A stretch of DNA of 64,000 nucleotides, taken from contig JAYEHH010000032.1 in NCBI GenBank assembly GCA_034716235.1, positions 370-64,369 on the forward strand, written 5' to 3'. A program made the position numbers and the translations under genes. This DNA is from Patescibacteria group bacterium. GTDB taxonomy: Bacteria > Patescibacteriota > Minisyncoccia > CAIUEV01 > JAHKAQ01. Position 1 is the first letter of the stretch, and each line of letters starts with the position of its first letter. Positions 46,239 through 56,346 of this stretch are shown piece by piece. The notes under the pieces are model-generated. The model saw only the letters and a list, made by a program, of their open reading frames with translations, was not told where the DNA came from and did not search any database.

Positions 46239-46443
46239 AGTTGAAAAGTTTAGATAATTGATAATTGACAATGGATAATTGATAATTAATGAATAATGAA
46301 TATCTTAAATAATTTTTCACCCAGAGGGTGATCCGCCTTCGGCGAGACAAGCCAGCCAGCCTCGCCGAGTCTAGGCGGGCCTCTGGCTGGCAATTAAGGA
46401 ATACTTTATAAACTTTACGAACCTTCTAACTTAACCATGAAGG
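46239..46443. repeat. mosaic repeat block at the left island flank (cataaagtt words, gataattga words, GC-rich core 46317-46391, ctttataaactttacgaacc words)
   Basis: The GC-rich core tcacccagagggtgatccgccttcggcgagacaagccagccagcc is the reverse complement of 1235-1279. The word arrays match those at 1280-1330, 45040-45157 and 56137-56160. Confidence 0.65.
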
Positions 46444-46516
46444 CTTTATTAAATGGGTGGGAAGTGGTTTAATAAAAAGAGATAGAGAATAAGAATTATA
46501 TAATTAATTACTTATA
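46444..46516 (+). repeat. island direct repeat, full unit A (73 nt)
   Basis: ctttattaaatgggtgggaagtggtttaataaaaagagatagagaataagaattatataattaattacttata is ~80% identical by eye to 55963-56037. It ends 9 nt before the ATG at 46526. Confidence 0.75.
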
Positions 46517-46525
46517 TTTAAAATT

Positions 46526-48343
46526 ATGCCAAATTATTTCGTCAATCAAAGAAATATTAGTGCGTTACTTCAAAACATTAAGGACGAAGATATTGTAATC
46601 CCAGAAATTCAGAGACCTTTTGTTTGGGAGAGTAAAAAAGTTCGTAATCTTATGGACTCATTGTATCAGGAATTTCCAATAGGTTATATTATTACATGGA
46701 AAAATCCAAATATAAGACTAAAAAATGGAAGAATGAGCGAGGGAAAACAAGTTATAATAGATGGACAACAAAGAATTACCGCTTTAATGGCTGCGATCTT
46801 GGGACGAGAAATTATAGACAAAGAGTATCAAAAAAAGAGGATTCGGATTTCCTTTAATCCATTGAAAGAAAAGTTTGAAACATTAACTCCTGTTATTGAA
46901 AAAAATAGTGAATGGATAAGCGATATTTCAGAATTTTTTAAAACTAGAAATAATATTTTTAATTTTACTGCTAATTTTTGTAAAAAAAATAATTTTACCG
47001 AAAAACAAAAAATCAAGACTCAGCAAAGTCTAACAAAATTACTAAACATGGAGGATAAGTTTATTGGAATTATTGAGCTTGATGCAAATTTAGATATTGA
47101 TGATGTAACGGAAATATTTGTTAGAATTAATGATGCTGGGACTCCCCTTTCACAAGCAGATTTTGCAATGAGTAAAATTGCCTCATACGAACCAACATCA
47201 GACCATTTGTTTGGAGTGAATTTAAGAAAGTCTATTGATTATTTTGCTCATCTATCTCAAACACCACATTTTCTTGAAGATATTGGAAGAAACGATAAAG
47301 AGTTTAGCCGAACAGAATATTTGCTAAAAATGAAATGGGCCGGGAAGGAATTGGATAATATATATAATCCAAACTATAAGGATATTTTAAGAGTAAGTTT
47401 CATTAAGGAATTTAATAGAGGGAAAATTAGCGATCTTGTGAAGCTTTTATCTGGACAAAATTTTAAAACAAGAAATTATGATCAAAAAATACAAGAGAAA
47501 TCATTCTTGGCTTTAAAAAATGGAGTCCTTGACTTTATAAATGAAAATCATTTTAAGAAATTCCTTATTATTTTACAATCAGCTGGAATTATTGATTCAA
47601 AACTTATTAATTCACAGAGCGTTCTAAATTTTGCCTATATTGTCTATTTAAAACTTAGAAAAGATGGAATGGCAAATAATTTAATTGGGAAATATACAAA
47701 AAAATGGCTTGTTCTTTCAATTTTGACTGAAAGATATTCAGCCTCACCAGAATCTACGATGGATAAGGATATTAAAGATATTAATAAATATGGAATTAAA
47801 AAAGTTATTGCAAAGATTGAAGAGGCGGACATGTCATCAACTTATTGGAATATTGGACTTGTACAAAATTTAAACAGGGCGATAATTTCAAGCCCATTTT
47901 TAAGCCTCTTTTTTATAGCACAGATATGCTCTAAGGATAAAGCTTTATTCTCCGAATCGGTTTTAATCGATCAACTCGTTAGCATAAAAGGAGACGTCCA
48001 TCATATTTTCCCCAAAAATTATCTTCAAAAAGCAGGGTTTGGAATAAGTAAATATAATCAAATTGCAAATTTTGTTTATTTACAACAAGAAGTAAATATA
48101 ACAATAGGAGATAAACCACCAGGACAATATTTTAGCCGAGCATTGAATCAATGTGATAATAAAACTTTGGATAGTGGAAGTATTGGAGAAATTACAGACA
48201 AGAAAAAATTGATAAAAAATTTAGAAATAAATTCTATCCCAACTGATATTTTTGAAATGGATATTACTAATTATGATGAATTTTTAGAAAAAAGACGGAA
48301 ATTAATGGCAAAGAAAATTGAAAAGTTTTATAAAAGTTTATAG
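46526..48343 (+). CDS. GmrSD-type modification-dependent (type IV) restriction enzyme, DUF262 + DUF1524
   Basis: 605 aa. The N-terminal DUF262 has IPEIQRPFVW, EFPIGYII and IIDGQQRITAL. The C-terminal His-Me/HNH-like DUF1524 has GDVHHIFPKNYL...NFVYLQQEVNITIGDK. Confidence 0.8.
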   Translation: MPNYFVNQRNISALLQNIKDEDIVIPEIQRPFVWESKKVRNLMDSLYQEFPIGYIITWKNPNIRLKNGRMSEGKQVIIDGQQRITALMAAILGREIIDKEYQKKRIRISFNPLKEKFETLTPVIEKNSEWISDISEFFKTRNNIFNFTANFCKKNNFTEKQKIKTQQSLTKLLNMEDKFIGIIELDANLDIDDVTEIFVRINDAGTPLSQADFAMSKIASYEPTSDHLFGVNLRKSIDYFAHLSQTPHFLEDIGRNDKEFSRTEYLLKMKWAGKELDNIYNPNYKDILRVSFIKEFNRGKISDLVKLLSGQNFKTRNYDQKIQEKSFLALKNGVLDFINENHFKKFLIILQSAGIIDSKLINSQSVLNFAYIVYLKLRKDGMANNLIGKYTKKWLVLSILTERYSASPESTMDKDIKDINKYGIKKVIAKIEEADMSSTYWNIGLVQNLNRAIISSPFLSLFFIAQICSKDKALFSESVLIDQLVSIKGDVHHIFPKNYLQKAGFGISKYNQIANFVYLQQEVNITIGDKPPGQYFSRALNQCDNKTLDSGSIGEITDKKKLIKNLEINSIPTDIFEMDITNYDEFLEKRRKLMAKKIEKFYKSL

Positions 48344-48375
48344 TAATAATTTTCTAATCAGAGAGCAGAAAGCTC

Positions 48376-48777
48376 TTACTCCTTATCAGGCAATCTATCA
48401 TCTTTTTTTCTTTGATAATAAGTATTCTTATTTAAACATCTGTTTATAATATTTTCCATGTGCCAATAAGTGTAATTGCCATATCTAAAATAAATCTGTT
48501 TTGTTTTGTAAAAATAATCCTCGTATCCTGACTGGTCAATGTAATTAGCAAGCTCTAAGTATAATTTGTTATCAACTTTTTCTTGGACAATATATTCATG
48601 GGGCCATGTTTTAGCATAAGTTTTTGCAGGCGTCCAATTAGAATTTTTAATAAATAATTTTAAATTATTGGGGAGTAGTACTCTATCAAACATCGCCTTT
48701 ATTTTTTTACTATGAAGAAATATTAAAACCTTTTTGATTGTAGCTATAGTATTGTTGATTACTTTAGTTTCATCCAT
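48376..48777 (-). CDS. hypothetical protein (WTPAKTY..WPHEYIV motif)
   Basis: 133-aa ORF convergent with the GmrSD gene. It is rich in aromatic residues (YFYKTKQIYFRYGNYTYWHM). No family could be named. Confidence 0.45.
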   Translation of the reverse strand: MDETKVINNTIATIKKVLIFLHSKKIKAMFDRVLLPNNLKLFIKNSNWTPAKTYAKTWPHEYIVQEKVDNKLYLELANYIDQSGYEDYFYKTKQIYFRYGNYTYWHMENIINRCLNKNTYYQRKKDDRLPDKE

Positions 48778-48927
48778 GCTGAATCTAAAGTGGATTCCAT
48801 AAGTTGCATATTCTTTTAATCAAAAATACATTATTTATTTCAATAAGTATAGTAAGTTATAATTTAAAATAGCTGAACAGAATTCTTAATTTATAATCTA
48901 GAATTTGTAATCTAAAATCTCTCAAGA

Positions 48928-48965
48928 CTTGATTAAATGGGTAGAAAGTGGCTTAATGGGGAGGA
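48928..48965 (+). repeat. island repeat, left half-unit B (38 nt), possible promoter TTGATT-17nt-CTTAAT
   Basis: cttgattaaatgggtagaaagtggcttaatggggagg is identical to the first 37-38 nt of unit C (55963-56000). It lies 131 nt upstream of the McrB start. Confidence 0.7.
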
Positions 48966-49095
48966 GAATTGCATGGTTAATTGGTTATCAATGAAAATGC
49001 TATAAAGTTTTTATTAAGATTATAATTAAGAGAATAATTCAGGTAGGGTTTTTTGCAAAAATTAATGTGCTTTTTAATTATTTTATATAAATTCA

Positions 49096-52014
49096 ATGAG
49101 AGTTAATATCAAGGAAATCAGGAGAATAATTAAATCTGATGTTATTAAGCCTAGAATTGAAGAATATTTACAGAAAAGAAAAAGTGGAGACGAGCAGCAA
49201 TGGAACGAGGAATATAAATGGGATCCAAAAATATTGCCTGCAACACATAAGGAATTTATCAAGGAAAGAGACATTCTTAAAAAAATTGAAATTCTTCAAA
49301 AAAATAATCCAAACGAAGGATCCTTTGTGAGTTATATGGACTTGGACGATCTCAATAAATTTGCTAAGGAAAAAACAAAGCAAGCCACAAAGTTGATGGA
49401 AAACTTATTGAATGGAAAAAAGAATATTGCTAAACGCATTGATTATTTTAGGGATGAGACGAAAAAAGTGGATGAAAAAATTAAATTAGGAACACCCTTA
49501 TTTGGTTACATTATGGCGGTATTCAATTCCAGTAAATATCCAACTTATAAAAATTCAACCTTTATGGCTCTCAAAAAGCTCATTGGAAAAAGACAAGAAT
49601 GGAGTTCTATGAGTGTTGGCGAGAAATATCAAACATTTACTGACCTGTGCCATGAAATGGGCAAATTGCTGAAGCCAGAACTTGAAACTGTAAATATCAG
49701 AGGTATTGAGGTCAAGCCAGGAAGGACTGCTCTGGATGGTCAAGACTTTTTCTATATTCTTGAAGATCGTTATAATAGAGAGAGATATTTCCCCGAACTT
49801 GTTAAATTTCTTGAACAAGCCAAGGCAAGCAATCTTACAACAAAGCAATACCGAAAGGATTATATGAATTGTAAAGTGAGGATAAGTTTTGGAAAAGTAA
49901 GCTCTGCACAAACACCCTGGATTAGTTTTTTATCCGGTGACAATAAATTACAGAAGGGAATTTATCCAGTCTTTCTTTTTTATAAAAGTATAAATAAATT
50001 ATTTCTAGCATATGGTATAAGTGAAATAAGTGAACCCGAACAAATTTGGAACATTGTTGGAAAAGAAACAATTGAAGATTATTTTATTGAAAATTTCAAC
50101 TCGGAGCCAGAGAGATATGGCAGTTCTTATGTTTATAAAGTATACGATGTGAAAAACATTGATAATTTAAATCAAGAACAAATGGAAAATGACTTGAAAA
50201 ACATAATTAATGAATATAAAAAACAACTTGAAGAAACTCCAAAAATTCAATACTGGACAATTTCTCCGGGGGAAGATGCAAAGCACTGGGAGGAGTTCTA
50301 TCAAAAAGGGATCATTGGAGTCGGCTGGGATAAAACAAAAGATCTCTTACAATATAAAAATAAAAAAGAAATTCAAAAGGTTGCGAAAAACTTATTTGGA
50401 TTAAAAACTAATGCCAGCAATACTGCCCAAGCTTGTTTGGATTTTTCTAGAACAATGAGAATTGGGGATATTTTAATTGTCAAAAAGGGAATTCATGAAT
50501 TGGTCGGCTATGGAAAGGTAACTTCAGATTATATTTATGATGCAAGGAGGAAGACATATAAACACATACGAAATGTGATGTGGATTAAAAAGGGAAATTG
50601 GAAGATAGATAAAGAGATTATTCATCCTGCATTAAAAACTTTAACTAACATAACTCCGTATGAAGGTTATGCCCAAGAATTATTGGGCATAATGGACGAA
50701 AGTAATATTGATGGAAAAAATTACTGGTGGATTAATGCAAATCCAAAAATTTGGAATTTAACAGAGGCGGAAGTCGGTTCCAAACAAATATATACAAGCC
50801 ATAATGAGGCCAAGAATCCCAGAAGAATTTATAGTTATTTTAAAGAGGTTAAGCCGGGCGACATTATGTTTGGATATATAACAAGTCCTGACAAACAAAT
50901 TACTTCAATATGCAAAATAACCAAAGGGTTATATGAGAACAAAGAGGGGGAAGTGATTGAATTTGAAAAAACTGAGACTTTACAAAATCCAATTTTGTGG
51001 AATGAATTGAAAAATGAAGAAAGTTTGAAAAATTGCGAACCAATTAAGAACAATCAAGGAAGTTTGTTTAAAATAAGCAAAGAAGAATATGAAACCATTA
51101 GATATTTGATTGATGAGAAAAATATTTTCACGAAAGAAAAAATTGAAAAATATATAAAAAAGGATGCTCTAGACAAATTATTTATTTCAGAAAATGAATT
51201 TGATAATATAGCCCAAAATATTGAAAGAAACAAAAATATCATTCTGCAAGGCCCTCCCGGAGTTGGCAAAACTTTTCTTGCAAAAAGGTTGGCTTATTAT
51301 TTGATTGGATACAAAGACGTAAACAAGGTACAATCTATCCAATTTCATCAATCATATTCATATGAAGATTTCATGCAAGGTTACAGGCCCAATGAAAAAG
51401 GAAAATTTGATCTTGTTAATGGAATATTTTTCAGATTTTGTCAGAAAGCTAAAAATGATCCAAACAATAAGTATTTCTTCTTGATAGATGAAATAAATAG
51501 AGGAAATCTGAGCAAAATTTTTGGTGAATTAATGATGCTTATTGAAAAAGATAAACGGGGTAAAGATTTTGCTATACCTTTAACATATTCCCAAGATGAC
51601 AGAGAAACATTTTATGTGCCAGAAAATGTTCATTTGATTGGGACTATGAACACAGCTGATAAATCACTTGCGATGGTAGACTATGCTTTGCGAAGAAGAT
51701 TTAATTTTATTTTTCTGAAACCAAAATTTAATAACAGCTTTAGTTCATTCCTAGAAAATATGGGAGTTAAAAAGATTATTATTAAAGCGATAGTTGAAAA
51801 AATAAGCAAACTAAATGAGATGATAATTAATGATGATAATAATCTTGGAAAAGGATATCAAATTGGTCATAGTTTTTTCTGTCCTCAGAGAAAAAGTAAA
51901 TATGACGAAGAATGGTTTAAGAATATTGTCAAATACGAAATTGAACCATTGCTCGAGGAGTATTGGTTTGATAGTGAGAAAAAATTTAATGAAGCGAAGA
52001 ATTTATTAAACTGA
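49096..52014 (+). CDS. mcrB: McrB-family AAA+ GTPase with extended N-terminal sensor region (DUF3578/MrcB_N-like + PUA-like + EVE-like)
   Basis: 972 aa. The AAA+ core spans aa ~700-900 (ILQGPPGVGKTF, FFLIDEINRGNLSKIFGELMMLIE, LIGTMNTADKSLAMVDYALRRRF). aa ~255-310 (KVRISFGKVSSAQTPWISFLSGDNKLQKGIYPVFLFY) resembles DUF3578. aa ~384-505 (YWTISPGE..W..F...GIIGVGW...MRIGDILIVKKG..LVGYGKV) and aa ~541-675 (YWWINANPKIW...VKPGDIMFGYITSP...QGSLFKISKEEY) look like EVE/PUA-type barrels. Confidence 0.8.
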   Translation: MRVNIKEIRRIIKSDVIKPRIEEYLQKRKSGDEQQWNEEYKWDPKILPATHKEFIKERDILKKIEILQKNNPNEGSFVSYMDLDDLNKFAKEKTKQATKLMENLLNGKKNIAKRIDYFRDETKKVDEKIKLGTPLFGYIMAVFNSSKYPTYKNSTFMALKKLIGKRQEWSSMSVGEKYQTFTDLCHEMGKLLKPELETVNIRGIEVKPGRTALDGQDFFYILEDRYNRERYFPELVKFLEQAKASNLTTKQYRKDYMNCKVRISFGKVSSAQTPWISFLSGDNKLQKGIYPVFLFYKSINKLFLAYGISEISEPEQIWNIVGKETIEDYFIENFNSEPERYGSSYVYKVYDVKNIDNLNQEQMENDLKNIINEYKKQLEETPKIQYWTISPGEDAKHWEEFYQKGIIGVGWDKTKDLLQYKNKKEIQKVAKNLFGLKTNASNTAQACLDFSRTMRIGDILIVKKGIHELVGYGKVTSDYIYDARRKTYKHIRNVMWIKKGNWKIDKEIIHPALKTLTNITPYEGYAQELLGIMDESNIDGKNYWWINANPKIWNLTEAEVGSKQIYTSHNEAKNPRRIYSYFKEVKPGDIMFGYITSPDKQITSICKITKGLYENKEGEVIEFEKTETLQNPILWNELKNEESLKNCEPIKNNQGSLFKISKEEYETIRYLIDEKNIFTKEKIEKYIKKDALDKLFISENEFDNIAQNIERNKNIILQGPPGVGKTFLAKRLAYYLIGYKDVNKVQSIQFHQSYSYEDFMQGYRPNEKGKFDLVNGIFFRFCQKAKNDPNNKYFFLIDEINRGNLSKIFGELMMLIEKDKRGKDFAIPLTYSQDDRETFYVPENVHLIGTMNTADKSLAMVDYALRRRFNFIFLKPKFNNSFSSFLENMGVKKIIIKAIVEKISKLNEMIINDDNNLGKGYQIGHSFFCPQRKSKYDEEWFKNIVKYEIEPLLEEYWFDSEKKFNEAKNLLN

Positions 52015-52019
52015 TTTTT

Positions 52020-53057
52020 ATGGAGATACCTATAATAAATATATATTACCTACTTTGTTATGCTTGGGATAAACTTGAAGAAAAAGATGTTGTTAACGTA
52101 AAAGAAGAAGATCACACTAAGTTACTTGATCTTTTTGCAAAGATATTAATTAACGGAATGAATCATCTAATCAGGAAAGGATTGGACAGAAATTACATTG
52201 ATATCAAAGAAGATTCAAAGAGAATTAAGGGAAAGATTAATTTCAATGAAACACTGAAAAGGAACTTGTTGGTACGATGTGAAATTAGTTGCGAATTCGA
52301 CGATTTTAGTTACAACATTCTTCACAACAGAATTATTAAAACAGTGATTGGAGGATTAGTTAGAAATGATGAGGTGGATCAGGAGCTGAGGGACGAATTG
52401 AATAAAATCTATCGATTATTGAAAGAGATTGATGAGATAAGGCTTTCCTCAAAAATATTTAATGCTGTAAAATTAAACAGAAATAATTACTTTTATGATT
52501 TTCTGATCAAGGTATGTAGGCTGATATATGAAAATTATTTAATCACGGAAGAAACGGGCAAGGGGAAATTTAGAGATTTTATAAGAGACGAAGTAAAAAT
52601 GAGAATGCTCTTCGAAGATTTTGTTAGGAATTTTTATAGAAAAGAACAAAACGAATTTTCTGTAACAAGGGAATTGATTGCATGGAATGTTAAGGCTGAG
52701 AATGATGAAGATATGAGTTATATGCCGAGAATGGAAACCGATATATCGCTAAAATCAAAAAGTAAAAAAATAATAGTTGATACAAAATATTATAAAGAGG
52801 CCATTAAGGGTCAATATAAGAATAAAGAAAAGTTAATATCCAATAATTTATATCAAATGTTTGCCTACATAAATAATATAGAAAACAAAGGAGGTCTAAA
52901 TAAAAAATGTACTGGAATATTACTTTACCCAACAGTTAAAAAAGATTTGGATTTAAAATATAAAATACCAAATCATAACTTACAAATTAAAACAATAAAT
53001 CTAAATCAAGAATGGAAAAAAATTCATAAAGACTTATTAAGTGTAATTATGACTTGA
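52020..53057 (+). CDS. mcrC: McrC-family nuclease subunit
   Basis: 345 aa, starting 5 nt after mcrB. The N-terminal YLLCYAWDKLEE and the C-terminal PD-(D/E)xK-like METDISL...IIVDTKYYK are typical of McrC. Confidence 0.8.
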   Translation: MEIPIINIYYLLCYAWDKLEEKDVVNVKEEDHTKLLDLFAKILINGMNHLIRKGLDRNYIDIKEDSKRIKGKINFNETLKRNLLVRCEISCEFDDFSYNILHNRIIKTVIGGLVRNDEVDQELRDELNKIYRLLKEIDEIRLSSKIFNAVKLNRNNYFYDFLIKVCRLIYENYLITEETGKGKFRDFIRDEVKMRMLFEDFVRNFYRKEQNEFSVTRELIAWNVKAENDEDMSYMPRMETDISLKSKSKKIIVDTKYYKEAIKGQYKNKEKLISNNLYQMFAYINNIENKGGLNKKCTGILLYPTVKKDLDLKYKIPNHNLQIKTINLNQEWKKIHKDLLSVIMT

Positions 53058-53131
53058 AAATCCCTATGTTTATAAATTTTAAAAACAATTTAGAATAGAA
53101 GATAATCATCTATTTATATTTATATAACCCA

Positions 53132-54349
53132 ATGCAACAATTTTCTCATTCAAAATTACAAACCTATGAAAGATGTCCCCTGCAATATAAGCTCCAATAC
53201 CTCACCAATCTAAAGCCGGAGCAGGAAGAGACAATAGAAGCCTTTGTGGGTAGCCGGGTCCATGAGACTCTGGAACTTCTTTATCGTGATCTACTGCGAA
53301 CAAAACTAAATTCTTTAGCTGATCTTTTAAAGTTCTATGATAAAATTTGGAGAGTAAACTGGAGCAATGACATAGTTATCAATAATAAAGAATTTAAAAA
53401 GAAACATTACTTTGATCTTGGAAAAAAATGTATTAAAAATTATTATGAAAAATATAGCCCTTTTGATCAGGATCAAACAATTGGAATTGAGAAGAGGATT
53501 AATTTACAATGGGGAGACATTGGAATAGTGGGATACATTGACCGTTTAGCTAGAGACAGCCAGGGTATTTATTCTATCCATGATTATAAAACGGGTGCCA
53601 TCATGGAACAGAAGTACGCAGATCAAGATCGTCAGCTAGCCTTGTATTCAATTGCCGTTAAGGAAAACTTTAGAGAGGCCAAAGAGGTAAGGTTAATTTG
53701 GCATTTTGTAGCTTATGGCGAAGATGTTATCTCGAAACGGACAAATAAGGAATTGGCTAAGCTAAAAAATGAAATGCTGTCCCTTATTGAAGAAATTAAT
53801 CTTGCAGAAAAAGAAGATAATTTTCCAGCCAAAGAAACTAAATGTGAATGGTGCGGATATTGGCAGTATTGCCCAAAGAAAAAGCATTTATTCAAAACAG
53901 AAAAACTTCCAAAAAATAAATACCTACAAGATAGTGGAGTAAAACTAGCAAAAAAGTATATTAATTTATCACAACAAAGAACTGTCATAAACAAACGAGC
54001 TAAAACTAAGGGGGAAATAATTAAGCAAGAAATGCTAAAGATTCAAGAAGCTATCCTAAAATATACCCAGAAACATAAAATAGATGTCTTGGCGGGAGAA
54101 AAAATGCTTGTAGCTATTAATAAGAGTAAGAACTATACCTTCCCTACAAAAACTACTGACATTGAAAAATACACTGAATTGGAAAATTTATTGAAAAAAA
54201 GTAAGTACTGGAACGGTGTATCTTCCGTCAATGCCCAAAAAGTTAGTCAATTATTGGAAGATGATGGGATTGACAGTAGATTAAAGCAGAAAATTATTGC
54301 CCTTGCTCCACTTGAAGAATCTACTAACTTATCAATCAGAAAAAAGTAA
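53132..54349 (+). CDS. Cas4/AddB-like PD-(D/E)XK nuclease with Fe-S Cys cluster and ~150-aa C-terminal extension
   Basis: 405 aa. Motifs: FSHSKLQTYERCPLQYKLQY (Cys15), GYIDRLARD (D137), IHDYKTG (D151-x-K153), QLALY (QxxxY) and CEWCGYWQYC (C238, C241, C247). Confidence 0.75.
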   Translation: MQQFSHSKLQTYERCPLQYKLQYLTNLKPEQEETIEAFVGSRVHETLELLYRDLLRTKLNSLADLLKFYDKIWRVNWSNDIVINNKEFKKKHYFDLGKKCIKNYYEKYSPFDQDQTIGIEKRINLQWGDIGIVGYIDRLARDSQGIYSIHDYKTGAIMEQKYADQDRQLALYSIAVKENFREAKEVRLIWHFVAYGEDVISKRTNKELAKLKNEMLSLIEEINLAEKEDNFPAKETKCEWCGYWQYCPKKKHLFKTEKLPKNKYLQDSGVKLAKKYINLSQQRTVINKRAKTKGEIIKQEMLKIQEAILKYTQKHKIDVLAGEKMLVAINKSKNYTFPTKTTDIEKYTELENLLKKSKYWNGVSSVNAQKVSQLLEDDGIDSRLKQKIIALAPLEESTNLSIRKK

Positions 54350-54910
54350 ATGGAGCTTCTAGAGAAAACCATCAAGCATATAGAAAAAAAGAAAAGGGAT
54401 AATTCTAATAAAAAAGAGCTATTGGCAAACAACAGACATCCTAAATCTGCCCATTATTATAAAAAGGAATGGTCATTTATTGAGTTTGTACCAGCTAGAG
54501 AAAATATTACCTATCAGTTACAGTATTTAGAGTATATGACCAATTTATACAATGACTACCAAATGTATTTAACGATTGAATCTTTACATTGCAAGAACAT
54601 GATGATTACCATTGCCTCAATAATGGAATGTGCCCTCTATGACCTCTTGTATCAGTTAGCCAGAAAAAGGTCAGATATTGGTTTTGATGAAAGAGAAGAT
54701 TTTTTAGCAATGATTGATTTAGGGTTTCGGGGAGGTTTACTTAATGAACAAATGAAAAATTTGCTACATGAGCTTCGGAAAGTTAGAAATTTTGTGCATA
54801 TTTCTAATTTGGAGCATAAAGAATACGAAGCTTATGATATTGAGCAAGTAAACAACTATATTATACTTTTAGATAATTTTAAGGATAGAGTTAGGGAGAA
54901 GATTAAATGA
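54350..54910 (+). CDS. hypothetical helical protein, possible HEPN-like (LLHELRKVRNFVH)
   Basis: 186 aa. Its ATG abuts the TAA of the nuclease gene (aagTAAATGgag). R143-x6-H150 fits the Rx4-6H HEPN motif. The family call is tentative. Confidence 0.5.
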   Translation: MELLEKTIKHIEKKKRDNSNKKELLANNRHPKSAHYYKKEWSFIEFVPARENITYQLQYLEYMTNLYNDYQMYLTIESLHCKNMMITIASIMECALYDLLYQLARKRSDIGFDEREDFLAMIDLGFRGGLLNEQMKNLLHELRKVRNFVHISNLEHKEYEAYDIEQVNNYIILLDNFKDRVREKIK

Positions 54911-54950
54911 AAATAATTAGGGTTATACTCCCCTGCTGCATTCTTTCTTA

Positions 54951-54977
54951 AAAGAATTACGTAATTAATTACTTACC
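54951..54977 (+). repeat. island repeat, right half-unit D (27 nt) with palindrome AATTACGTAATT
   Basis: aaagaattacgtaattaattacttacc is identical to 56011-56037. It lies 55 nt upstream of the ATG at 55032. Confidence 0.7.
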
Positions 54978-55031
54978 AGTAACCCCACTTCCAAAAACAA
55001 TTCTAAAATAACATAGATTAATAGAATCTGA

Positions 55032-55922
55032 ATGCCTCCAAAACCTAAAAAAATAGATGTTGATGTTAATGATTTTTTCAGAAGAATTGTTAGATTAAAA
55101 AAGAAAAAGAAATTTGCAAATTTCTTAAAATTTATTAAACGAGTACCAAAACAATCCCCTTTAAATGACTCTCTCGTATTCATTCAAAATTGTAATTGTT
55201 TTTATTATGCAACAGCTAAGCAATGGAAGAATAAATTTGGAAGAAAAGTAAAAGATGATGCGCAACCATTGATCGTATTAGTTCCATTTGGTCCCGTTAT
55301 GTTCGTATATGATATTAAGGATACCAAGGGAAAATCTCTAGATAAAAAAAATTTGTTTTGGTGGAAAGAAAAAGAAGGATATTTTCACGAAAGTATTTAT
55401 TTGAACACAGCCAATAACTGTAAGAATGTTGGGATAGATTATCGTATTGGTAAAAAAGAACAGTATATATTTAAAGAGGGTCTACAGACTTTCGGATATG
55501 CTGGAAAAAATATAAATAATAACTTACGTAAAATTGAACTACATCCTAAATATCAAAATGGAATCAATATAAAAGAAACTTATGGAGTATTATGCCATGA
55601 GTTGGCTCATCATTTGCTTGGGCATTTGGGAGAAATAAAAATTGAGATACCAGTGCAGATGAGTTTATTTTCATCTAAGGTCAACGTCCGTCACAAAAAA
55701 ATAGCTCCGAGTGGTAGAGAGTCTATTGATGATAATATTAAAGAGCTTGAAGCCGAATTAACTGCTTGGATAGTATTTTCCTGTTGGGGTATGGAAAAAA
55801 ACTCAGAAGCATACATGGCAAATTGGCTGATAGATAGCAATGATGCAAAAGAAATAAACTATCCCTTAGTTTTTAAGGTAGCTGGAACGATTAAGCGAAT
55901 GGCGCTCGGTAAAATTGCGTAA
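55032..55922 (+). CDS. HExxH zinc metallopeptidase-like protein, ArdC-like or ImmA/IrrE-like (tentative)
   Basis: 296 aa. CHELAHHLLGH is a metallopeptidase motif. The N-terminal YYATAKQWKNKFGRKVKDDAQPLIVLVP resembles the ArdC_N/DUF1738 ssDNA-binding pattern (TfkQw..lGr.VkKGeK). Confidence 0.5.
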   Translation: MPPKPKKIDVDVNDFFRRIVRLKKKKKFANFLKFIKRVPKQSPLNDSLVFIQNCNCFYYATAKQWKNKFGRKVKDDAQPLIVLVPFGPVMFVYDIKDTKGKSLDKKNLFWWKEKEGYFHESIYLNTANNCKNVGIDYRIGKKEQYIFKEGLQTFGYAGKNINNNLRKIELHPKYQNGINIKETYGVLCHELAHHLLGHLGEIKIEIPVQMSLFSSKVNVRHKKIAPSGRESIDDNIKELEAELTAWIVFSCWGMEKNSEAYMANWLIDSNDAKEINYPLVFKVAGTIKRMALGKIA

Positions 55923-55962
55923 AGAAATATATCAGTACAATTATCCCAAACATACTATTTGG

Positions 55963-56037
55963 CTTGATTAAATGGGTAGAAAGTGGCTTAATGGGGAGGG
56001 AAATAGAGAAAAAGAATTACGTAATTAATTACTTACC
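55963..56037 (+). repeat. island direct repeat, full unit C (75 nt)
   Basis: The unit is cttgattaaatgggtagaaagtggcttaatggggagggaaatagagaaaaagaattacgtaattaattacttacc. See units A, B and D. Confidence 0.75.
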
Positions 56038-56136
56038 ACCACTAAAACAATAATCTATTCAAAATAATAATTCAAAATAATAATTCAAAATACCTACAGG
56101 ACTGGAAAAATATAGTTGCTAATGCTAATCTAAAAC

Positions 56137-56346
56137 TAAGTTCGTAAAGTATAACTTCTAACGTTTCGTCTAGGCGTCCCGGGATTTCCGTCCGGCATGC
56201 GCCAGATTACATTTTCCTGCCTACCGGCAGGCAGGAAGCTTTAGCGAAGACTGGTCATCCCCTGGATGAAAAATTGAAAATTAGAAATTGAAAATTATAA
56301 TAAAGTATTCCTTAATTGAAAATTGTGAATTGAAAATTGAAAATTC
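56137..56346. repeat. mosaic repeat block at the right island flank (cgtaaagt words, GC-rich core 56168-56268, AT-rich aattgaaaatt words)
   Basis: gtctaggcgtcccgggatttcc...ttttcctgcctaccggcaggcagg matches 1167-1215. The segment 56306-56345 matches the atpD-upstream module at 39/40 positions. Confidence 0.65.
56274..56301 (+). promoter_or_regulatory. putative valS promoter TTGAAA-16nt-TATAAT inside the repeat block
   Basis: The sequence reads aaaTTGAAAattagaaattgaaaatTATAATaaag, ~50 nt upstream of the ATG at 56352. Confidence 0.35.

Follow-up and report, generated by a model that had tools for sequence, protein, structure and literature searches.

An ArdC-like protein encoded beside restriction and BREX genes in Patescibacteria and other phyla, a candidate controller of restriction systems

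The 64,000-nucleotide stretch analysed here (the window) belongs to a Patescibacteria group bacterium (GTDB lineage Bacteria; Patescibacteriota; Minisyncoccia; CAIUEV01; JAHKAQ01) and corresponds to positions 370 to 64,369 of the forward strand of contig JAYEHH010000032.1 (NCBI GenBank assembly GCA_034716235.1). It carries an island of restriction genes in which GmrSD, orf133, McrB, McrC, a Cas4-like nuclease and orf186 are followed, as the final cassette, by the gene studied here. Its product is a divergent member of the ArdC superfamily by its fold, its active site and transitive homology, with a protease domain leaning towards the M78 family. In many phyla, relatives of this protein are encoded beside or inside restriction and bacteriophage exclusion (BREX) operons, a distribution suggestive of a role, not described before, in helping or controlling restriction. 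The open reading frame (ORF) and the main elements of the protein are listed below.

55032-55922, + strand: ORF of 296 amino acids (aa) with an ATG start, encoding an ArdC-like two-domain protein (predicted N-terminal ArdC-N/BHD-like DNA-binding domain and C-terminal gluzincin protease)
55203-55286, + strand: residues 58-85, YYATAKQWKNKFGRKVKDDAQPLIVLVP, counterpart of the ArdC-N core (ArdC WFTYRQAKELGGQVRKGEKGSTVV) according to the translation and alignments
55305-55331, + strand: residues 92-100, VYDIKDTKG, counterpart of the ArdC/Rad4 "squiggle" motif VFNADQIDG
55596-55610, + strand: residues 189-193, HELAH, zinc-binding and catalytic motif on the active-site helix, invariant in 74/74 sequences and aligned with ArdC H201, E202 and H205
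55743-55757, + strand: residues 238-242, ELEAE, glutamate helix; E238 is predicted to be the third metal ligand and is paired with E229, a metal ligand of ArdC
55812-55814, + strand: Y261, predicted substrate-stabilising tyrosine, invariant and aligned with ArdC Y255

The definition of the squiggle motif and the roles of the ArdC residues, including Y255, are those of the study of R388 ArdC (PMC7213743). The sequence was compared with 39 close homologues and with 74 sequences from many phyla. Within residues 58-85, W65 is invariant among the close homologues and A60, R71, P79, L83 and P85 are nearly so. In the VYDIKDTKG stretch, T98 is invariant and V92, Y93, D94 and G100 are conserved in both sets. 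The HExxH motif, read in the translation as CHELAHHLLGH (residues 188-198), is kept in 39/39 and 74/74 sequences, and E238, E240, A241 and E242 are all invariant. Altogether, 18 residues distributed over both domains are invariant in the two sets (F34, N45, Q52, W65, P88, T98, G155, H189, E190, H193, G197, H198, G200, E238, E240, A241, E242 and Y261). The gluzincin site is intact, the surface of the N-domain is conserved, and both are under selection.

The AlphaFold model of the protein is confident (pLDDT 85.9, pTM 0.85). ArdC is its best structural match in the PDB, followed by lesser matches that are those expected for ArdC: CapP (6.4), the Rad4 BHD (6.2), Spartan (5.4) and PprI/IrrE (5.1). 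A fold search of BFVD returned one small single-domain match only. Alignment of the family profile with a profile of R388-type ArdC using hhalign gave a probability of 95.4% and an E-value of 1.7e-8, with all catalytic residues paired (H189/E190/H193 with H201/E202/H205, E238 with E229 and Y261 with Y255). ArdC is also the top match of the broader family profile among PDB sequences (E 0.005). The profile built from the 39 homologues returned, as sole result against the same sequences, the HExxH of a CAAX protease, which we consider spurious.

For the N-domain alone, the hhalign comparison with the R388-type ArdC N-domain is not significant (E 0.2-0.34). This test is weak, because the ArdC profile is shallow (at least 63% identity). 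A link is provided by a 291-aa protein of an Acaryochloris conjugative plasmid, named "ArdC-like ssDNA-binding domain-containing protein" in RefSeq. It scores 98.8 bits against the hidden Markov model (HMM) of the window family, over both domains, and 40.5 bits against that of R388-type ArdC. Its YKAWQKHGRQVRKGEKGIVIL stretch aligns both with the YYATAKQWKNKFGRKVKDDAQPLIVLVP motif of the window protein and with the ArdC-N core. Its VFDVSQTDG is the counterpart of the squiggle of ArdC, and through it VYDIKDTKG can be paired with the squiggle, a pairing that direct alignment gives weakly. Both domains of a 719-aa ArdC-like protein of an Enterococcus faecalis plasmid are also matched by the family HMM (96.6 bits). 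The overall ArdC architecture, with an N-terminal ArdC-N/BHD fold ahead of the protease, is thus present according to the fold and to the HMM link via the Acaryochloris protein. We are highly confident that the window encodes a two-domain protein of the ArdC superfamily, in which an ArdC-N/Rad4-BHD domain, presumed to bind single-stranded DNA, precedes a predicted gluzincin protease (H189, E190, H193, E238 and Y261) intermediate between M78 (ImmA/IrrE) and MPTase-PolyVal.

Existing family models capture this protein poorly. Searched alone against Pfam, the window protein stays below the cut-offs of SprT-like (19.7 bits, cut-off 25.6) and MPTase-PolyVal (12.4 bits, cut-off 27.5, E 0.17), gives no ArdcN match even at E<=10 and does not match M78. 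Neither it nor any of the 74 relatives matches an NCBIfam model, and no PADLOC 2.0 model is matched by the window protein or by its 79% homologue at E<=1. Among relatives, Peptidase_M78 is matched by 45/74 (best E 5.8e-9), MPTase-PolyVal weakly by 12 to 14 (12/74 in the wider set), SprT-like weakly by 24/39 of the close homologues, and ArdcN by one sequence in each set (1/39 and 1/74), at E 3e-5. The PADLOC capP model is matched by 10/74 relatives, as a domain-level similarity. The C-terminal part (about 110 positions, ca 468-590) of the 597-position RT_III-A model PDLC02944 is matched by 59/74; this model seems to include a zincin-like C-terminal domain homologous to the protease of the ArdC-like family. 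A link to retrons was considered on the basis of these matches and rejected, as they are confined to the protease-like part of the model.

Homologues of the window protein number 63 in a set of 5.8 billion proteins, and a profile search of 1.84 billion cluster representatives (50% identity) retrieved 632 clusters at E<=1e-30 and 4141 at E<=1e-10. They form a distinct, mostly chromosomal clade to which no dedicated Pfam, NCBIfam or PADLOC model matches. The protein itself has been deposited, identical in sequence, as a hypothetical protein of a Patescibacteria metagenome-assembled genome (MAG; P0001).

These results bear on a previous reading of the locus from its sequence alone, hereafter the original prediction, which described the 296-aa ORF, interpreted CHELAHHLLGH as an ImmA/ArdC-type zincin motif and noted an ArdC_N likeness at the N-terminus. 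The ORF is present, on the + strand and with an ATG start, and its catalytic residues map one-to-one onto those of ArdC. The N-terminal likeness is borne out by the best PDB match and by the alignment of the motif with the ArdC-N core in the bridging protein; the ArdcN profile and the hhalign comparison of the N-domain did not recover it. The prediction was to be abandoned if no significant ArdC_N or ImmA profile match was found or if the HExxH motif varied among homologues. The single sequence has no match to ArdC_N, M78 or MPTase-PolyVal above the Pfam cut-offs; the HExxH motif is conserved in all homologues, so that at the level of the family the prediction stands. The structure prediction that had been proposed yielded the confident model described above, with ArdC as closest PDB structure.

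ArdC of the IncW plasmids R388 and pSa (PDB 6I89 and 6SNA; ArdcN PF08401 and MPTase-PolyVal PF18818) is one of the closest known systems. The two proteins have nearly the same length (297 aa and 296 aa) and the same domain order; the HExxH, the glutamate ligand and the tyrosine are aligned, the ArdC-N core and squiggle are recognisable through the bridging homologue, and a tie to type I restriction is common to both. On the other hand, identity is about 15%, the window protein remains under both Pfam cut-offs, and the protease of most relatives is nearer to M78. The window family also has a beta-hairpin insert of 20 to 30 residues between the two catalytic helices. Finally, ArdC is encoded in the plasmid leading region, whereas the window family is chromosomal and lies beside the host's own restriction or BREX genes.

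TrsAR of the lactococcal plasmid pUC11B, which we compared by description only, shares with the window family an ArdC-like fold and an ImmA/IrrE-type annotation. Plasmid proteins of Gram-positive bacteria and cyanobacteria with an "ArdC-like ssDNA-binding domain", of which the E. faecalis and Acaryochloris ones were matched in both domains at 97-99 bits, are encoded, like TrsAR, beside relaxase or mobilisation genes or on conjugative plasmids and aid evasion of type II/III restriction-modification (R-M); the window clade resides in host defence loci. IrrE/PprI, ImmA and CapP are associated with a substrate gene of the XRE/helix-turn-helix (HTH) type and with a C-terminal GAF-like domain. The window family has neither: the window protein ends at the protease domain, and its extra domain is N-terminal and ArdC-N-like, not GAF-like. 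The profile threshold, the third histidine ligand and the zinc-binding subdomain of SprT, Spartan and Wss1 were not found either, the predicted third ligand being a glutamate as in ArdC.

We then considered the genomic context of the whole family. A scan of one genome per species retrieved at least 147 relatives in many phyla. At 76 non-redundant loci, R-M, BREX and type IV genes were recognised by homology to seeds from annotated loci, a limited and restriction-biased set. Genes of type I, III, IIG or IV restriction or of BREX are present at 39/76 loci. At 38 of these they lie within 5 kb of the member, and at 14 they are immediately adjacent. The upstream neighbour is co-directional in 55/75 loci, with a median gap of 37 nt. 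No neighbour gene is conserved across contexts, and the −1 and +1 neighbours share no homology. R-M and BREX genes make up on the order of 1% of a genome, and proteins of these types are encoded by 13-25% of the bases within 8 kb of a member. The enrichment around members is therefore large, measured against this general figure of about 1% and not against a matched background.

The most regular arrangement is found in BREX-1 operons. In five lineages (Nitrospirae, two Acidobacteria, an Akkermansia-labelled MAG and Rhodospirillum; L040, L049, L051, L053 and L061), the ArdC-like gene lies between pglX and pglZ, and in three of these loci (L040, L051 and L061) gene calls overlap or abut. The assignment was checked on BrxC, PglX, PglZ and BrxL, with PglZ weakly confirmed (E 4e-5). 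Among the five loci, identities are 52-59% for the ArdC-like members, 38-65% for PglX and 42-53% for PglZ. These sequence comparisons indicate that the ArdC-like gene co-diverged with PglX and PglZ and was therefore retained at this position while the operon diverged. Insertions are known to be frequent in the pglX-pglZ gap, a hotspot where for instance PARIS is found in Salmonella LT2 (PMC9009780). The recurrent operonic linkage, including the BREX-1 slot, points to a working relationship with restriction systems, not chance adjacency. In an incomplete collection of the literature, we found no paper that places ArdC-like proteins in or next to R-M or BREX loci, nor one that links BREX with a metalloprotease or IrrE.

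Some contexts differ from these. In Verrucomicrobia (L027, L029, L030, L034 and L035), the member immediately follows the genes for a MASE1-PAS hybrid histidine kinase, with a 4-nt overlap, and for isoleucyl-tRNA synthetase; no defence genes were detected at these loci, and in this subclade the family may have a different, possibly regulatory, role. A SNF2 helicase-PLD protein and an MmeI/Eco57I-type methyltransferase form a recurrent pair near members in several phyla (L007, L068, L085, L087, L090, L093 and L120). On the Microvirga plasmid pMVF16-5 (L125), a member annotated as an ImmA/IrrE family metallo-endopeptidase ends a co-directional run comprising a DEAD/DEAH helicase of more than 2000 aa, a UvrD-like helicase and a small ORF, opposite genes for proteins with DUF3883 (1584 aa) and DUF4365. 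The locus may represent a further context of the defence type.

The Patescibacteria clade was analysed more closely. In addition to the window, the neighbours of ten further homologues were annotated with Pfam, and all 11 loci are housed in defence or conflict islands. One member is directly after hsdR of type I systems, with variable content upstream; another is between a reverse transcriptase and GmrSD, with NERD, SNF2-PLD and MmeI-like proteins near. A third has a type III R-M system in its vicinity, a fourth precedes a type I system, with a serine recombinase in the neighbourhood, and a fifth adjoins a CRISPR-Cas locus and an integrated element. Two more are associated with type I systems: one is surrounded by such a system, GmrSD, Shedu and a TIR protein, and the other is placed beside such a system and an integrase. 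Of the remaining three, one follows GmrSD, a type I system and HEPN-AbiU2, one follows an SNF2-PLD protein, DUF3800 and an MmeI-like enzyme, and one adjoins a cREC/trypsin conflict system. None of the 11 loci has an adjacent HTH/XRE gene, and none has a relaxase or coupling-protein gene nearby; at one (L008), only two small ORFs resembling type IV secretion system pilins were seen, ca 6 kb away. Recombinases are found within 10 kb in 4/11 loci. Downstream of the 79% homologue, the gene corresponds neither to the aminoacyl-tRNA synthetase nor to the 188-aa ORF of the window; therefore, the family member is not the fixed flank of one chromosomal hotspot.

In the window, the ArdC-like gene ends an island in which repeats separate restriction cassettes. 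The features of the island are the following.

46444-46517, + strand: full repeat in diverged form, which marks the left edge of the island and immediately precedes GmrSD
46526-48343, + strand: GmrSD (Pfam and PADLOC)
48376-48777, − strand: orf133, within the restriction-cassette span 46526-54910
48928-48969, + strand: left half-repeat, which brackets the McrBC cassette together with the right half at 54950
49096-52014, + strand: McrB, 972 aa, with MrcB_N-like, PDC-S02-like, EVE and AAA_5 regions (Pfam and PADLOC)
52020-53057, + strand: McrC (Pfam and PADLOC)
53132-54349, + strand: PD-(D/E)XK Cas4-like nuclease, appended to mcrBC (Pfam and PADLOC)
54350-54910, + strand: orf186, 186 aa, appended to mcrBC, with its start abutting the stop of the nuclease gene
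54950-54978, + strand: right half-repeat, 29 nt, AAAAGAATTACGTAATTAATTACTTACCA, 54 nt upstream of the ATG of the ArdC-like ORF (repeat comparison)
55963-56038, + strand: full left-plus-right repeat, 76 nt, downstream of the ArdC-like ORF, at the right edge of the island

The right half has a 100% identical copy at 56010-56038 and a 79% copy at 46489-46517, and the left half is found exactly at 48929-57 and 55964-92. No such matches occurred in 100 shuffles. The description of the gene as a stand-alone cassette, with a right half-repeat upstream and a full repeat downstream, is thus accurate. From left to right (46444-56038), the array reads full unit, GmrSD and orf133, left half, McrBC cassette, right half, ArdC-like gene, full unit. 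From the geometry of the repeats, we infer that the 6-kb McrBC cassette was inserted into the centre of a full repeat that once parted GmrSD from the ArdC-like gene.

The right half holds a perfect 12-bp palindrome, GTAATTAATTAC. The palindromic element lies 57 nt ahead of the ArdC-like ORF, and a copy of it lies 12 nt upstream of the GmrSD start (46491-46514). The right half may be a promoter/operator or a recombination core, and the ArdC-like gene may be co-regulated with GmrSD via this common upstream element. As RNA, the full repeat is not notably structured (z 0.69); the repeats fold unlike attC sites or terminators, Rfam gives no match in 45-57 kb, and a scan for promoters and terminators performed no better than with shuffled sequences. 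A motif resembling the right half, TGAAATTACGTTGTTAATTACTTA, precedes the first gene of a type I R-M operon ending in the 79% homologue (L001-L004, e.g. L001 3437-3460). This motif may be a lineage-specific promoter/operator for defence cassettes.

The GC content of the island (26-33% over 46.4-56.0 kb; 34-38% in the flanks) fits horizontal acquisition. No tRNA gene was found in the window and no integrase or recombinase was seen within the island. GC-rich, strongly structured elements lie just outside both ends of the island, at 46300-46400 (minimum free energy, MFE, -45.2, z -4.65) and 56140-56275 (MFE -44.9, z -3.0), adjoined by AT-rich tandem words at 46250-46300 and 56270-56345, respectively. 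Neither has an Rfam match; they could be small RNAs, structures of leaders or terminators, or elements of the repetitive extragenic palindromic (REP) kind. On contig L020 (JAYEHE010000357.1), which has been binned as Candidatus Zixiibacteriota MAG226, there is a gene whose product is 100% identical to that of the window ORF, flanked by the same repeats. NCBI labels the protein identical to that of L020 as Patescibacteria, and this contig is probably mis-binned. It carries a further copy of the right half ca 8.3 kb downstream, a position that would fall past the end of the window.

The family is rare in viral contigs (17 IMG/VR loci), and phage genomes gave no match with the window protein as query. 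This protein matches 3 plasmid records only. A tblastn search with a more typical family member matched 1384 plasmid records, mostly conjugative or mobilizable and including a large Gram-positive ArdC-like set. A PHROG labelled "anti-restriction protein" is matched by 19/74 members. The island of the window holds only restriction genes, and the conjugative-element setting of ArdC was not found there.

From the fold, catalytic residues, homology and genomic association observed here, our preferred reading, held tentatively, is that the protein serves restriction-type defence loci as an accessory module and is not a plasmid relic: tethered to DNA, the protease would modulate the machinery encoded next to it. 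A modulator of the linked machinery is favoured because the partner systems share only the property of being DNA-bound restriction or translocation machines. The diversity of restriction partners, together with the lack of a conserved partner gene, fits a generic action on such machines. By analogy with characterised proteins, DNA binding, protease activity, its targets and the direction of its effect may be pictured as follows. The N-domain would bring the protein to DNA that is single-stranded or damaged, for example at stalled forks, in intermediates of resection or repair, or on incoming transforming or conjugative strands. The tethered protease would then strip or inactivate DNA-bound restriction or translocase complexes, such as HsdR, Res, McrBC, GmrSD or the BREX machinery. 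The outcome would be less self-restriction, as a built-in counterpart of ClpXP-dependent restriction alleviation; a newly acquired locus might also be established more easily, and DNA entering as a single strand might be exempted.

Several precedents suit such a role. The protein DpnA of the pneumococcal DpnII locus, unrelated in sequence, protects incoming single strands and offers a functional analogy. Spartan and Wss1 combine a DNA-binding module with an HExxH protease acting on DNA-bound proteins, and provide another. R388 ArdC, if produced by the recipient, counteracts hsdRMS, and it has similarities to Spartan, a DNA-dependent protease (PMC7213743). In the alleviation of EcoKI restriction, the host tempers its own restriction by ClpXP-dependent proteolysis of DNA-bound complexes, in this case of HsdR (PMC11109961); the proteins concerned are unrelated to the ArdC-like family. 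We hypothesise, by analogy, that the window family takes part in tempering of the ClpXP or DpnA type.

A more general form of this proposal is possible, and we hold it more tentatively still. Restriction-type loci across bacteria (type I, III, IIG and IV R-M, and BREX-1) would recurrently carry their own ArdC-like "anti-restriction" protein as a built-in controller that prevents autoimmunity, aids establishment or exempts single-stranded DNA.

Several points weigh against the action on linked restriction machinery. In the window, the neighbours are McrBC and GmrSD, and type IV enzymes of this kind normally pose no threat to self DNA. The protease of R388 ArdC is dispensable for the sole phenotype measured, and no substrate was found (PMC7213743). 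About half of the 76 loci have no R-M gene recognised with the limited seed set, and the Verrucomicrobia subclade adjoins a histidine kinase and IleRS, not defence genes. The pglX-pglZ gap being a known insertion hotspot, guilt by association suits an independent defence gene equally well. The tie of the N-domain to ArdC-N is structural and transitive, the direct profile comparison being not significant. Lastly, what is known of the clade comes from its sequence, predicted structure and gene context.

The closest competitor, which we nevertheless regard as rather unlikely, is a stand-alone defence or abortive-infection gene. The N-domain would sense single-stranded DNA of phages or plasmids, and the protease would then cleave a protein of the invader or one that is essential to the host. 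Independent defence genes are typically recognised by their enrichment in defence islands, and the lack of a conserved partner and the separate cassette of the window, with its own upstream element, agree with this explanation. So do the pglX-pglZ slot, which also hosts independent systems such as PARIS, and the kinship of the protease domain with CapP and with the C-terminal region of RT_III-A, both defence components. However, co-divergence with PglX and PglZ at a fixed position, with overlapping or abutting gene calls in 3/5 BREX loci, suggests integration over cohabitation. The partners are also overwhelmingly of restriction type and do not cover the full range of defence systems, as seen with a restriction-biased seed set, and no PADLOC model matches the window protein.

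Less probable again is a classical anti-restriction or establishment protein of the ArdC/TrsAR type, carried by a mobile island and helping the island or incoming DNA to survive restriction in the recipient. Homology to plasmid ArdC-like proteins (the 1384 plasmid records) and the matches of 19 of the 74 members to the anti-restriction PHROG argue for it. TrsAR, annotated as ImmA/IrrE with an ArdC-like structure, provides a precedent, as it increases conjugation 3- to 20-fold into recipients with type II/III R-M (PMC10221548). The low GC content of the island, the direct repeats at both its ends and the recombinases within 10 kb in 4 of the 11 close loci are also in its favour. Against this, no relaxase or coupling protein is encoded near the gene in the close loci and the island lacks an integrase or tRNA. 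The few plasmid records (3), the lack of phage matches and the 17 IMG/VR loci of the family also disfavour it. Leading-region establishment genes are not found at fixed positions inside BREX-1 operons, and a non-conjugative island is restricted before any gene that it carries can be expressed. The original prediction had seen in such a protein a sign that the island originated from a mobile element. Horizontal acquisition agrees with the low GC content; the anti-restriction origin fits poorly with a family that is chromosomal, rare in viral contigs and operonic with restriction and BREX genes.

The original prediction had also put forward an ImmA-like regulator as an alternative. In this case, a regulatory protease of the ImmA/IrrE/CapP kind, activated by DNA damage or single-stranded DNA, would cleave a repressor and switch on the neighbouring cassettes. 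We find this very improbable. The M78 matches of 45 of the 74 members and the operator-looking palindrome common to the upstream regions of GmrSD and of the ArdC-like gene speak for it, but the HTH partner is absent beside the gene in all 11 close loci, no neighbour is conserved, and the protein has an ArdC-N-like domain in place of the GAF-like sensor domain of IrrE and CapP.

The least probable explanation is a housekeeping protease for the repair of DNA-protein crosslinks, like Spartan or Wss1, with an incidental proximity to restriction genes: weak SprT-like Pfam matches (24/39), a DNA-binding-plus-protease architecture that fits the class and the non-defence context of the Verrucomicrobia subclade are outweighed by the patchy, island-borne distribution including a low-GC host island, by the strong restriction and BREX enrichment around members, and by a predicted glutamate ligand as in ArdC without the zinc-binding subdomain of Spartan.

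So far ArdC has figured solely as a weapon of plasmids against restriction, with a protease whose substrate and purpose have yet to be explained. A sister clade inside host restriction and BREX operons, kept while PglX and PglZ diverged to ca 40-50% identity, offers a second tractable setting in which to study the ArdC protease. Cultured carriers (Vibrio sp. PID17_43, Bacillus sp. V5-8f, Prosthecobacter fluviatilis, Caballeronia hypogeia and Bradyrhizobium erythrophlei) make experiments feasible. Should the protein be an independent defence gene, it would add a single-gene, single-stranded DNA-sensing protease system to those already known. If instead restriction-type loci do carry a built-in controller, the ArdC of plasmids would have arisen as a weaponised version of a regulatory module of the host or, conversely, the host would have domesticated the plasmid gene. 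Control of self-restriction, or admission of single-stranded DNA, would represent a new accessory layer for R-M and BREX systems, and would bear on how Patescibacteria, with their small genomes, balance DNA uptake against defence.

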